Origin: Escherichia coli O127:H6 str. E2348/69
GTDB lineage: Bacteria > Pseudomonadota > Gammaproteobacteria > Enterobacterales > Enterobacteriaceae
Direction: 5' to 3' (one strand)
Assembly: GCF_000026545.1 (NCBI RefSeq)
Contig: NC_011601.1
DNA length: 64,000 nt
In this document: positions 60,171 to 64,000 of the stretch, piece by piece
Layout of the letters: each line of letters starts with the position of its first letter
Position numbering within the stretch: the first letter of the stretch is position 1
The notes under the pieces: model-generated
The model's input: the letters and a program-made list of their open reading frames with translations, nothing else
Database searches by the model: none
Told to the model about the DNA's origin: nothing
Made by a program: the position numbers and the translations under genes

Positions 60171-60983
60171 TCAGCACTCAACAAACTGATGTTGTTCATT
60201 AAGACGATAGCGGACTCCGGCTCGAATATTGTTTTCACCTTCAATGGCGACGGCGAAGCGAACTCTTTCGCCGTCATGATATGCCAGTGCGGCGCATCCC
60301 CCTGGCCCGAGAATAATTGAGTCGACCACGCCCGTGCTCACTACTGTTGAATTTTCACCGCTGGCAATGATGTGTACATTGTCGCCGCTGTTGGCAATTC
60401 TGGCGTTTGCGCCAAAGCTGGCGATTTGCACCAGGTCACCATTACTGGCGACATGACACCGTTCACCCAATGTACAAACGCGTACTCGCATTCCGGTATT
60501 CGCAATCCGACTGCTATCTCCAGCGCTGCTTATCCGCGAAGAATTACCGGTTACAGCAACCCGTGCGCGTGCACCGGAGCTGCCAATGTGACTGTTAAAG
60601 CCGACACATCCAATCCGCACGCTATAACCCATACTGGCAATTTGCGCGGCATACCCAGCGGTTGCGATTCTGGCGTTATCCTCACAACAGCCGATGCGAG
60701 CATGATCGTCGCTGCGGGCAAACTGACTGCAAAATAGTCGTTCTCCGGGATCTGTGGCCAGTTTTTGCATAGAAGAAACTTCCTGATGCGCGAAGTTTTC
60801 ATCCGCCAGCCATTTTTTCCACGCATACTCAACCAGACTCTCCGCCCAGTCCGTATATCCTTCCTCAATTAGTGCATGATGAATATCGGCATAACTACCG
60901 CCACGTGGGAAATGGCGCAGAAACCAGCGATACATCACCGCTCCGATACGCCATTCTCGCAGGTCTGCTCGTGTAATGATCAT
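60171..60983 (-). CDS. ydhT: FNR-regulated protein YdhT
   Basis: 270-aa ORF at the conserved position in the ydhYVWXUT cluster. Confidence 0.85.
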   Translation of the reverse strand: MIITRADLREWRIGAVMYRWFLRHFPRGGSYADIHHALIEEGYTDWAESLVEYAWKKWLADENFAHQEVSSMQKLATDPGERLFCSQFARSDDHARIGCCEDNARIATAGYAAQIASMGYSVRIGCVGFNSHIGSSGARARVAVTGNSSRISSAGDSSRIANTGMRVRVCTLGERCHVASNGDLVQIASFGANARIANSGDNVHIIASGENSTVVSTGVVDSIILGPGGCAALAYHDGERVRFAVAIEGENNIRAGVRYRLNEQHQFVEC

Positions 60984-60986
60984 TCG

Positions 60987-61772
60987 TTAGTGCCGGTGAT
61001 AGCCATCGACCATGCTTTTAAAGGTTTCGTGTGGCGTACGCCCCGTGGTGCAAAGATAAAGATGACCGAAGATAAAAAAGAGGCTTATAAATGCCAGAGC
61101 AAAATGCGCCTGCAATAACCAGTATCTTACGCCAGGAAACATATCTCCCACGGCTTGCGGATAGAGACACAGCAGCCCCGTCAATAGTAACAATGGCAGC
61201 AATCCATACATGACACCAACATAGGCGACCTGCTGTAAGGGATTAAATTTAGACTGGGTTGTTGCCGGGAAAGGATGTTCTTCCCCCTGCATAATGCCAA
61301 ACAAATAAAATCGCGTTTGTTTTGCCGCTCGATCCAGCCAACCCTGACGACGAATGCGATAGTGGTGACCATTACCCCCAACGGCATTGATCAGAACAAA
61401 GCCAAGCCAGCATGCCAGTAACAAAAATCCGCAAACTTCATGCACCGCAACCAGACTTTTAACCGCAGTTGCGCCCACCAGCGCAAAGTGATTTATCAGC
61501 CCACTTGCCAGCAACAATACAAAGAGTAACGCATTCGACCAGTGCCATAATCTGACCGCTTTGCTGTAAAGATAAATCCTCTCACCATGATCGGTGGCTG
61601 ATTTCTTCACGCCACGAGCACGAAGCAAGGCATGTAGCCCCAGCACCAACCACATCCCAACCAGCAATAGTCCGGCAATGATCAACCACACCGGCCAAAA
61701 TTGGGGGGTGAACTGTGGCACATAGTTCGCCAACTGGCTCTGAAACTGTTCAGCATGTTGCGACGGGTTCAT
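60987..61772 (-). CDS. ydhU: PhsC-like membrane cytochrome b YdhU
   Basis: 261 aa with multiple TM helices. Confidence 0.85.
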   Translation of the reverse strand: MNPSQHAEQFQSQLANYVPQFTPQFWPVWLIIAGLLLVGMWLVLGLHALLRARGVKKSATDHGERIYLYSKAVRLWHWSNALLFVLLLASGLINHFALVGATAVKSLVAVHEVCGFLLLACWLGFVLINAVGGNGHHYRIRRQGWLDRAAKQTRFYLFGIMQGEEHPFPATTQSKFNPLQQVAYVGVMYGLLPLLLLTGLLCLYPQAVGDMFPGVRYWLLQAHFALAFISLFFIFGHLYLCTTGRTPHETFKSMVDGYHRH

Positions 61773-62437
61773 ACATTTTCCTTTTTAATCAAATGTTGAC
61801 CGAACCGGCGATACAGATGCGGTTTCCCGGCGCCAAGTAGCTGATATTGATAGTATTTATTTTCCTGCAACCACGCCTGAATTTCTGGGCTATCTTCGTG
61901 ACCAAAGATCAATGCGTGTTCCGGGCAGGCACTGACGCAAATGGGCGGAAAGCCTTTTGCCAGTCGGGTCTCAGCGCAGAAATCACATTTATCTGCCACT
62001 TTAGTGACAGGGTTAAGGTAGCGAACCTGGTACGGGCAAGCGCCAATGCAATAACTGCAGCCGATGCACTGCGATTTTTCTACCCGCACGATCCCCTGCT
62101 CATCACGCCACGACGCCCCTGTCGGGCAAACGTCGATGCAAGGAGCATCTTCGCAGTGCTGACATGACTGGCGAAAAAAGTGATACTGCGTTCCATTGTC
62201 GTTATCGATGACTGGAATGTGTGCTATCGATAAACGGCTTCCCTGAGCGGGGACGTGGTTAGTTTTACGGCATGCGCGGGCGCAGATATTACAGCCATTG
62301 CACCGTGACTCGTCATGAATCATGGCATACCGAACTTCCTTTTCTTGCCTCGTATTCGCTAACAGAGAAGACGCAGAACCAGTAAAAAAGATTACTGTTC
62401 CCATCCTCAGAACAAATTTGCGTCGAGTGAAGGACAT
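61769..62437 (-). CDS. ydhX: 4Fe-4S ferredoxin-type protein YdhX (Tat signal)
   Basis: Start chosen at MSFTRRKFVL (twin-arginine motif); multiple CxxCxxCxxxCP clusters; the ORF track extends 17 codons further upstream. Confidence 0.85.
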   Translation of the reverse strand: MSFTRRKFVLRMGTVIFFTGSASSLLANTRQEKEVRYAMIHDESRCNGCNICARACRKTNHVPAQGSRLSIAHIPVIDNDNGTQYHFFRQSCQHCEDAPCIDVCPTGASWRDEQGIVRVEKSQCIGCSYCIGACPYQVRYLNPVTKVADKCDFCAETRLAKGFPPICVSACPEHALIFGHEDSPEIQAWLQENKYYQYQLLGAGKPHLYRRFGQHLIKKENV

Positions 62438-62500
62438 CTGATTATCCCCTAATGCAGTGGCTGCAACTGTCCACCCTATCCATGACATCCCCCTGAAATT

Positions 62501-63148
62501 TCAGGGGTTCTGAAACTGCTCTACCTCGAACCATTCGCATAAGCCATACGCCTTGCCATAGGTCATAAATCGCTCGCTAAACAAGTACAACACTGCCGTC
62601 GATGACTCCACCTGCCGTATATCGGCATATTCAGGTGCAACATCCATCGTGGCGATCGCGGCTTCAATCTGCGCTTCCTGGAAGTAATATGGCGCTTGCA
62701 TCAGCATGGCGACTTTGTAAGGACGAGGATACGTCTGGCACTCAAAACGAACGGCGTGTGCAATGGCGCGACAAATGTCCTGCTCCACAACTTGCAAAGA
62801 CATCGCTGCGTAGTTTTCACTCATGGCCTGCGTTGAGTAATAGTAATCATCCTGGCTTCCCGTCATACAAGCGATATCCGCGTAGTCTCCGTTCTGCTTA
62901 ATGTTTTCCAGCAAAACTGACAGTTCCTCTTCTGCAACCGAATAGGGTGGCGAGAGAAACACGGCGCGCGCCACCAGCTGCCCAGCCGCAGAATGCTGGC
63001 GAATGAACTCTGCCAGAATTTCAGCCGGTTCTGGTTCGGTTACCGTATCAACGGGGTGACGCATCCCCTGCAACCATTGCCGCTTCGCCTCATCAATTTC
63101 GCTGACTTCCGCTAACGGCAATTCATCCTGATGGTTCATCTCTCCCAT
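62501..63148 (-). CDS. ydhW: protein YdhW
   Basis: 215-aa ORF at the conserved position. Confidence 0.85.
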   Translation of the reverse strand: MGEMNHQDELPLAEVSEIDEAKRQWLQGMRHPVDTVTEPEPAEILAEFIRQHSAAGQLVARAVFLSPPYSVAEEELSVLLENIKQNGDYADIACMTGSQDDYYYSTQAMSENYAAMSLQVVEQDICRAIAHAVRFECQTYPRPYKVAMLMQAPYYFQEAQIEAAIATMDVAPEYADIRQVESSTAVLYLFSERFMTYGKAYGLCEWFEVEQFQNP

Positions 63149-63151
63149 TCC

Positions 63152-64000
63152 TTACGCAGGCAGTAGATTGTGTGCTGCCAGATCGGCGGCAATATCTTCC
63201 AGCCCCAGACGCTGCAATGTTTCACGGGTCGGACAACCAAGCTGTGGGTCCCAGCCCATTTCTTTGTAGAACATTGTGAGCGAAGCATGCATATCGTCAC
63301 GATCCATTTTGTCTGTACCTTCAGTAAAGACCGGGATCTGCGGATCCTTGTCGAATACCCAGGAACAGATAAGATCGTGTTCATTACGCATATCTTTGGT
63401 TTGCATCAGTTTTACCGTGTAGGCGCGATGCAACGTAAAGATACGCTCTGCAGCTAAATCTAATTTTTCCTGAGTCATATCTTCGCCAGTGATCGCTTTG
63501 AAGAATTTGGCTTCAAGCGCCAGATCACCCCGGTAATTACGGCTTTTCAGCGGCGAAACGGTCATTGGCCAGACCCAGTTGCACAGGGTGACGGCGTTAT
63601 GCAAACAGACCCGCAACAGCGACCACTTAGCATATTTAATTTTTGCGTCATTGATCGGTGTGTAGTTTTTGGTTTCATCGTAAGCATCTTCAGAACCAAA
63701 AAGCTCTTTCGCCACTTCACGCTGCAGTTTCAATGGCAAGCCGGAACCAATAAAATTGATATGGGTATGCGTCATGCAGTCACGGTTGAACATACAGTTA
63801 ACAATGGAACCGACTTGCGCTGACGCTTCATTGGCATGGTGAACCGGATAGCCAAACGGCGACCAGAGTTTATTTTTCGCGTAGCCCCAGTACTCTTCAC
63901 CCAAATTCCAGCGTTCTGCGATGGCATATGAACCATCAGCCAGGTGACTCAACTCACCCACGCGATGCGCCAGACGGTAGTAAAAATCTTTAATAAAGTT
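63152..64000 (-). CDS. ydhV: aldehyde:ferredoxin oxidoreductase-like protein YdhV, C-terminal part (5' end outside window)
   Basis: Minus-strand frame open to the window edge; the 269-aa ORF is a fragment with its stop at 63152. Confidence 0.85.
   Translation of the reverse strand, partial: NFIKDFYYRLAHRVGELSHLADGSYAIAERWNLGEEYWGYAKNKLWSPFGYPVHHANEASAQVGSIVNCMFNRDCMTHTHINFIGSGLPLKLQREVAKELFGSEDAYDETKNYTPINDAKIKYAKWSLLRVCLHNAVTLCNWVWPMTVSPLKSRNYRGDLALEAKFFKAITGEDMTQEKLDLAAERIFTLHRAYTVKLMQTKDMRNEHDLICSWVFDKDPQIPVFTEGTDKMDRDDMHASLTMFYKEMGWDPQLGCPTRETLQRLGLEDIAADLAAHNLLPA

Follow-up and report, generated by a model that had tools for sequence, protein, structure and literature searches.

The ydhYVWXUT operon at the end of a 64,000-nucleotide window of Escherichia coli E2348/69: a known anaerobic oxidoreductase cluster seen against the gene arrangements of its relatives

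The 64,000-nucleotide stretch analyzed here (the window; contig NC_011601.1 of Escherichia coli O127:H6 strain E2348/69) ends in five of the six genes of the ydhYVWXUT operon, which make up the distal part of that operon. The region under study runs from 60171 to 64000, and open reading frames (ORFs) were listed over 57000–64000. The operon is a known one with good annotation, of which the window holds a strain variant that is cut at ydhV and brings no new biology. Across homologous loci, YdhY, YdhV and YdhW form the minimal conserved core of the system, with YdhX and YdhU as an added quinol-coupling module. From these comparisons and from published work we think it probable that ydhYVWXUT encodes a membrane-bound, periplasm-facing, menaquinol-linked reductase for a low-potential acceptor. 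The operon is among the few remaining respiratory-type systems of E. coli still without a known substrate, it is near-universal in the species, and its clade, with many members from gut bacteria, accounts for about 10% of all AOR/WOR enzymes. What interest remains lies in this long-standing substrate question and in comparative leads, rather than in discoveries within the window.

A first-pass annotation of the window, made from the sequence alone, had described this end as a co-directional minus-strand set comprising a partial ydhV for a protein resembling aldehyde:ferredoxin oxidoreductase (AOR), ydhW, a ferredoxin with a twin-arginine translocation (Tat) signal (ydhX), a PhsC-like cytochrome b (ydhU) and ydhT. 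The five ORFs are present on that strand in that arrangement, and domain searches, whose failure would have undone the ferredoxin, cytochrome b and AOR assignments, bear out all three, provided that "PhsC-like" is read as similarity only and "AOR-like" as a statement about fold and not about chemistry. Because homology E-values for the proteins of the window range from 1e-31 to 1e-163, chance resemblance is excluded. The annotation's view that this is the known ydhY operon, and not a novel one, is likewise correct: by megablast the region is 100% identical to enteropathogenic E. coli (EPEC) O127:H6 strain E2348/69, where RefSeq lists ydhT, phsC (the RefSeq name of ydhU), ydhX, ydhW and ydhV, followed upstream by ydhY, and the K-12 operon has been described (Partridge et al. 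2008, PMID 18227264). Megablast of 60000–64000 against 5,426 complete E. coli genomes returned a query coverage of at least 80% in 5,413 of them. The comparison with K-12 that the annotation had proposed as a check found the same six genes in identical order in MG1655 (b1674–b1669), with every ORF intact, 98.0% nucleotide identity and 1 to 8 residue differences per protein; the FNR consensus upstream of ydhY is shared as well, and the two strains differ by strain-level substitutions only. The K-12 enzyme has been termed EcYdh and assigned to Class V WOR, clade 41 (PMC13328260), and the features of that class are found here, namely ydhY directly upstream of ydhV, a Tat motif in YdhX and a membrane-embedded YdhU.

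The catalytic subunit is truncated by the window end. The 3' part of ydhV occupies 63152–64000 on the minus strand and holds codons 419–700 of 700 (282 codons), so that about 60% of ydhV lies outside the window, together with the whole of ydhY and the promoter. We therefore read the missing part from the E2348/69 RefSeq match (locus L001; window coordinate = L001 coordinate + 53999), in which the complete ydhV spans 9153–11255. The fragment within the window matches Pfam AFOR_C (E = 2.8e-33, profile positions 166–385) and the NCBIfam equivalog PRK09849 (positions 422–703 of 703), and full-length YdhV matches AOR, formaldehyde ferredoxin oxidoreductase (FOR) and BamB chains of the PDB at E-values of 1e-28 to 5e-59. 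Both the CxxCxxxC motif that ligates a [4Fe-4S] cluster (CHSCPIRC, residues 307–314) and Cys336 lie outside the window, are present in YdhV of E2348/69 and are invariant in five diverse clade members.

YdhV is reported to bind a redox-active bis-Mo-molybdopterin (MPT) cofactor, its substrate being still unidentified (PMC9103625, 2022), and to use Cys336 as a metal ligand while lacking the second-shell residues of aldehyde-oxidizing AORs (PMC12096430, 2025). No member of Class V WOR, clade 41, has been natively purified or given an activity or role (PMC13328260, June 2026); the earlier statement that the substrate is still unknown thus holds in all three papers. "Aldehyde oxidoreductase" is a label of fold and family and carries no prediction of chemistry, and because the metal ligand is a BamB-like cysteine, the chemistry of YdhV is probably not aldehyde oxidation. 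BamB of class II benzoyl-CoA reductase belongs to the same AOR/WOR family as YdhV (E = 2.5e-43), and the two share a Cys ligand to the metal and the absence of the second-shell residues for aldehyde oxidation (PMC12096430). Unlike BamB, which is a cytoplasmic tungsten enzyme within the electron-bifurcating BamBCDEFGHI complex, Ydh prefers molybdenum and is membrane- and Tat-associated. When the active-site segment of YdhV was searched against PDB sequences for a direct alignment to BamB there was no significant match, and the equivalence of Cys336 in YdhV with Cys322 in BamB therefore rests on the literature.

The two proteins of the quinol-coupling module are encoded side by side on the minus strand. 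The ydhX gene (62437 down to 61769; 222 residues from the start used by RefSeq and in K-12) encodes a ferredoxin predicted to carry four [4Fe-4S] clusters, with 16 Cys in four ferredoxin motifs and a Fer4_11 match in Pfam (E = 9e-22). The protein starts MSFTRRKFVL, and its N-terminus, MSFTRRKFVLRMGTVIFFTGSASSLLA, combines the S/T-R-R-x-F-L-K pattern of Tat substrates with a hydrophobic region; the twin arginine is present in 42 of 42 homologs and also in two more distant loci, L089 (a Telmatospirillum metagenome-assembled genome) and L091. Among NCBIfam models NrfC scores best on YdhX, though its 248 bits fall short of the 377.6 required; DsrO comes second (137 bits), and TtrB is also among the matches. 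Judged by these scores YdhX is NrfC-like and of the NrfC/DsrO/TtrB type, not NrfC itself. An in-frame ATG further upstream, at 62488, would give a protein of 239 residues with 17 additional residues before the Tat motif; the start at 62437 is favored by a Shine-Dalgarno-like AGGGGA 7 nucleotides upstream of its ATG.

YdhU (61772 down to 60987, minus strand; 261 residues) is a cytochrome b of the PhsC/FdnI/HyaC type. Pfam assigns it to PF01292, "prokaryotic cytochrome b561" (E = 6e-31); on the PhsC equivalog PRK15006 it scores 457 bits, the cut-off being 204, and it has weak matches to the FdnI and hydrogenase cytochrome b models of NCBIfam. Hydropathy delineates five hydrophobic segments that hold His77, His111, His223 and His237, all four conserved in 41 distinct homologs and two of them 14 residues apart. 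In FdnI/PhsC-type cytochromes b, four His residues ligate two b hemes, and the analogy fits YdhU as a two-heme cytochrome b of this type and the presumed quinol-binding membrane anchor. RefSeq calls the gene "phsC, thiosulfate reductase cytochrome B subunit", a name that is carried over from PRK15006 and overstates what is known, the same gene being called "putative cytochrome YdhU" in K-12. No phsA or phsB adjoins ydhU, whose neighbors are ydhX and ydhT, and the locus contains no gene of the dimethyl sulfoxide (DMSO) reductase family. Ydh and the Salmonella thiosulfate reductase PhsABC, like the polysulfide and tetrathionate reductases, are all built from a catalytic pterin subunit, a four-cluster ferredoxin and a membrane subunit that oxidizes quinol. 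The catalytic subunit of Ydh, however, is an AOR/WOR protein with bis-MPT, whereas PhsA is a DMSO-reductase-family protein with bis-molybdopterin guanine dinucleotide; Ydh moreover has two ferredoxins (YdhY and YdhX), against one in PhsABC, and the extra proteins YdhW and YdhT.

The division into core and module emerges from a genome scan with a YdhV alignment, in which the 80 named loci are the best 80 of 263 relatives; the scan was made without Shewanella, Sutterella, Desulfovibrio and Coriobacteriia. Loci were tabulated with phmmer, hmmsearch and motif scans, the motifs being located by regular expression on automatically called ORFs. Two arrangements account for the set. Type A comprises 42 Enterobacterales loci with the gene order Y-V-W-X-U-T, ydhT being present in 41 of them, from Escherichia, Citrobacter, Leminorella, Limnobaculum, Budvicia, Proteus, Serratia, Symbiopectobacterium and Brenneria; none of the 42 has fdhD or tat genes within the locus. 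Type B comprises 38 loci from Cetobacterium, Bacillota, Halanaerobiales and spirochaetes with Y-V-W and without X, U and T, and fdhD, tatA or tatC lies within the locus in 33 of the 38. YdhW is encoded in 77 of the 80 loci, and YdhT, among the loci examined, only in those of the Enterobacterales type. Of the more distant loci whose YdhY lacks the second arginine, the two that could be read through, L089 and L091, have Y-V-W followed by a ferredoxin bearing a twin arginine and a PF01292 cytochrome b, and no YdhT. The loci with X and U probably form one clade, and their pattern may stem from a single evolutionary event. At every distant YdhW homolog that was sampled, a ferredoxin gene is followed by an AOR-like gene of about 700 codons and then by ydhW, in some cases with fdhD or tatA-tatC thereafter.

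The type B architecture has already been published for Cetobacterium somerae (PMC13328260), whose CsWOR41 "LSW" operon shares the YdhY-YdhV-YdhW core with Ydh, the YdhV identity being 58–59% (L049, L051 and L052). In that cluster the ferredoxin WorS has a canonical twin arginine, fdhD, tatA and tatC are present, and YdhX, YdhU and YdhT are absent; CsWOR41 prefers tungsten over molybdenum (PMC13328260). A further arrangement was seen on a Joint Genome Institute (JGI) metagenome contig (L092), where a FAD_binding_2 flavoprotein with a twin-arginine motif (SRREFVKGVG) and an FMN_bind protein (5199–8221) lie upstream of a YdhY with a twin arginine and YdhV. By its gene content this looks like a third wiring of the enzyme core, based on flavin instead of cytochrome b, and the flavoprotein set is probably the "membrane-bound flavin-binding subunit" described in Clostridia (PMC13328260).

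The same loci differ in the export signal of YdhY, a ferredoxin with 18 Cys in four ferredoxin motifs, encoded directly upstream of ydhV at window-equivalent positions 65275–65901 (RefSeq, E2348/69). In E. coli its N-terminus reads T-R-L-E-F-L-R and lacks the twin arginine. All 41 readable type A loci have [ST]-R-L-[ED]-F-L-R, always followed by L-[LF]-G-C; in type B, 36 of 37 readable loci have the canonical [ST]-R-R-x-F-L-K, and 22 loci have a lipobox-like x-x-G-C after the Tat motif. No X-U locus that was looked at retains the second arginine, the position being taken by L, Q or K, and YdhY of L008, L089 and L091 lacks it too. Along the range of YdhY homologs those at 60–76% identity lack it (R-Q, R-K or R-L), whereas those at 53–57% identity have the twin arginine. 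The altered N-terminal region has not decayed: in type A YdhY the mean column identity reaches 0.95 there and 0.90 in the ferredoxin domain, and between Citrobacter and Proteus the two regions are 90% and 75% identical, respectively. Being more conserved than the ferredoxin domain, the N-terminal region of type A YdhY is taken to be functional. The residue that follows Cys41, at position +2, is K in E. coli and mostly K, T or R, and also D, elsewhere; in lipoproteins the +2 residue decides the membrane destination.

These patterns allow the tentative and rather doubtful proposal that the Tat signal of YdhY was repurposed in the proteobacterial branch that acquired YdhX and YdhU, the second arginine having become dispensable. 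If true, this would amount to an undescribed assembly route. In one version, a YdhX-YdhY-YdhV complex would be exported on the single twin-arginine signal of YdhX, and the YdhY N-terminus would serve as a membrane anchor or as the binding site for an escort protein of a new type, YdhW; in the alternative, the catalytic dimer would have been moved to the cytoplasmic face.

YdhW and YdhT each have an NCBIfam equivalog of their own, matched at 394 and 489 bits, respectively. Neither matches any entry in the local copy of Pfam, and their homologs carry the recent Pfam entries YdhW_C and YdhT_N. YdhW (63148 down to 62501, minus strand; 215 residues from the K-12 start) has a tandem winged-helix fold and is very acidic (isoelectric point 4.4); it lacks both a signal peptide and conserved Cys residues. 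Its acidity is strong across the family, its fold resembles the protein-binding adaptors VPS22 and ScpB, and its gene always adjoins the AOR gene or tatA; no sequence relatives of YdhW, and no relative with a solved structure, were found in Pfam or the PDB. The role proposed for YdhW is that of the redox-enzyme maturation proteins TorD/DmsD/NarJ and NapD, which likewise are small, cytoplasmic and free of a signal peptide and have their genes next to that of a cofactor enzyme dependent on Tat, but its fold differs from both the all-helical TorD fold and the ferredoxin-like fold of NapD. A TorD-like chaperone proper was considered and rejected, the fold being tandem winged-helix rather than all-helical. 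RefSeq places the start of the E2348/69 gene at 63139 (212 residues), three codons downstream of the K-12 start at 63148. Some homologs are longer, with 300 residues in L091 (11995–12897) and 280–395 residues in several representatives; extended N-termini or more than one matched stretch in these proteins suggest fusions or additional winged-helix repeats.

YdhT (60983 down to 60171, minus strand, 60171 being the final base of the stop codon; 270 residues) combines a five-helix domain (residues 1–76) with a beta-solenoid (residues 87–270) of about 13 nonapeptide repeats that have an invariant Gly every 9 residues, and it has no signal peptide and no transmembrane segment. Two positions distinguish the strains: residue 230 is Cys in E2348/69 (GPGGCAALAYHDGE) and in at least 90% of aligned homologs, and Ser in K-12, and residue 126 is Cys in E2348/69 and Ser in K-12.

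Expression is under anaerobic control, as the first-pass annotation had it when it named the operon FNR-regulated. The E2348/69 sequence upstream of ydhY contains a perfect FNR site, TTGATaacgATCAA, which lies outside the window (L001 12104–12117) and has the TTGAT-N4-ATCAA form of FNR-activated class II promoters. In a genome-wide study of FNR, ydhYVWXUT is listed as activated, with a site at -42.5 (PMC3688515), and Fur targets the operon directly as well (PMC7157518). In the region there was one promoter-like site against 4.9 expected by chance, and no convincing terminator, the eight weak terminator-like stems (4.0 ± 2.0 expected) lying inside ydh coding sequences in seven cases and inside the adjacent ydhS in one. 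The genes are closely packed, with a 4-nucleotide overlap of ydhX and ydhU and gaps of 3 nucleotides that separate ydhU from ydhT and ydhV from ydhW. With such junctions, promoter-like signals no more frequent than chance and no convincing terminator, the five genes fit a single transcription unit. An Rfam search of 60171–64000 returned no match, and a palindrome across the ydhW stop codon, considered as an RNA element, was rejected, as it folds no better than shuffled sequences (z = -0.87). According to the title of a 2008 paper by Partridge, nitrate and nitrite also regulate the operon, acting through NarL and NarP; the effect is reportedly repression.

Taken together, these observations suggest a path for electrons through the complex. 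YdhU would oxidize quinol and pass the electrons to its two b hemes. From there they would travel through four [4Fe-4S] clusters in Tat-exported YdhX and another four clusters in YdhY to the [4Fe-4S] cluster and Mo-bis-MPT center of YdhV on the periplasmic side, where a low-potential acceptor would be reduced. YdhW may act in the cytoplasm as a protein-binding accessory to the YdhY/YdhV pair, escorting it or assisting its assembly; the proposal is founded on the location of its gene next to that of the catalytic subunit or next to tatA, on its acidic tandem winged-helix fold and on the absence of conserved Cys. The beta-solenoid protein YdhT would likewise be an accessory, gained in the Enterobacterales alongside the YdhX-YdhU module. 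Expression of the operon is anaerobic, upon activation by FNR. Kinship with BamB suggests a reductase, as does the combination of FNR activation with NarL/NarP control, and the periplasmic orientation is suggested by YdhY homologs outside the X-U clade, which have canonical Tat motifs and whose loci often include tatA, tatC and fdhD. The same orientation has been predicted elsewhere (PMC13328260; PMC4257093).

Several considerations weigh against this scheme. No activity, substrate or purified holo-complex has been reported for any clade member (PMC9103625, PMC12096430, PMC13328260). On the sequence of its N-terminus the export of YdhY is unproven, since T-R-L-E-F-L-R is not a twin-arginine motif, and Cys41, if lipidated, would by its +2 residue direct YdhY to the outer membrane, away from YdhU. 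Which way the electrons flow has been deduced only from the pattern of regulation, and the roles given to YdhW and YdhT from fold, charge and gene position. Winged-helix domains are, moreover, also typical of DNA-binding regulators, and YdhW could on that ground be a regulator of the operon rather than an accessory of the enzyme, which we regard as very improbable in view of its strongly acidic charge across the family. The missing second arginine of YdhY also prompted a different topology, in which YdhY and YdhV would stay on the cytoplasmic face, held by an uncleaved hydrophobic YdhY N-terminus, and YdhU with periplasmic YdhX would form a transmembrane electron conduit by the logic of DsrMKJOP or Hmc, the substrate being turned over in the cytoplasm. 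Cytoplasmic variants of YdhV have indeed been predicted in Eggerthella and Gordonibacter (PMC4257093). The absence of the second arginine from YdhY in all readable Enterobacterales loci and in L008, L089 and L091, set beside its constant retention in YdhX, agrees with such a split, as does the second-best NCBIfam match of YdhX, DsrO being the periplasmic ferredoxin of a conduit of this kind. We nevertheless consider the arrangement unlikely: the S/T-R-x-x-F-L motif, h-region and Cys of YdhY are strongly conserved and look like a working signal for export or processing, PF01292 cytochromes b normally serve periplasmic partners, and a cytoplasmic subunit for docking, as DsrK or HmcF would be, is missing from the operon. 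The export status of YdhY and YdhV decides on which side of the membrane the substrate should be sought.

Electron flow might also run the other way, with Ydh as a quinone-reducing dehydrogenase that oxidizes some donor in the manner of formate dehydrogenase-N, another enzyme with a PF01292 cytochrome b. The weak matches of YdhU to the FdnI and hydrogenase cytochrome b models and the clustering of homologs with fdhD, whose product matures formate dehydrogenases, lend this some support, but FNR activation combined with NarL/NarP regulation, the latter reportedly repressive, is the pattern of low-potential terminal reductases. Although most characterized AOR/WOR enzymes are oxidative, BamB, the closest characterized relative with the same Cys ligand, is a reductase (PMC12096430). 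Furthermore, the Cetobacterium large subunit CsWOR41L oxidized 0 of 46 aldehydes, though only this subunit was assayed, partially purified and with the ferredoxin subunit undetected (PMC13328260). On balance, a dehydrogenase seems to us decidedly unlikely, less so only than a regulatory YdhW, and we retain the periplasm-facing reductase as the preferred description of Ydh.

The surroundings of the operon add a few observations. Plus-strand ORFs of up to 121 codons within the region are antisense to well-supported genes. At the distal end, ydhS (plus strand, stop at 60159) and ydhT (minus strand, stop at 60171) converge with 11 bp between their stop codons (60160–60170). This gap contains no terminator-like hairpin, the nearest stem being at 60036–60054 inside ydhS, and transcription from either side must therefore end within, or read into, the opposite gene. 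Further along lie tandem tRNA-Val genes, valV and valW (57855–57928 and 57936–58009, both on the plus strand). An Rfam match to "HPnc0260 bacterial antisense RNA" (104.6 bits; 57974–58140, minus strand) overlaps the second tRNA-Val gene and the start of ydhR, and may reflect tRNA-derived sequence in the Rfam family rather than a real antisense RNA. Just upstream of the tRNA pair, ydhQ (56291–57547, minus strand) encodes an adhesin-like AIDA-repeat protein of 418 residues with Gly/Thr/Val-rich repeats; it is unrelated to the ydh oxidoreductase genes and has only the "ydh" name in common with them.

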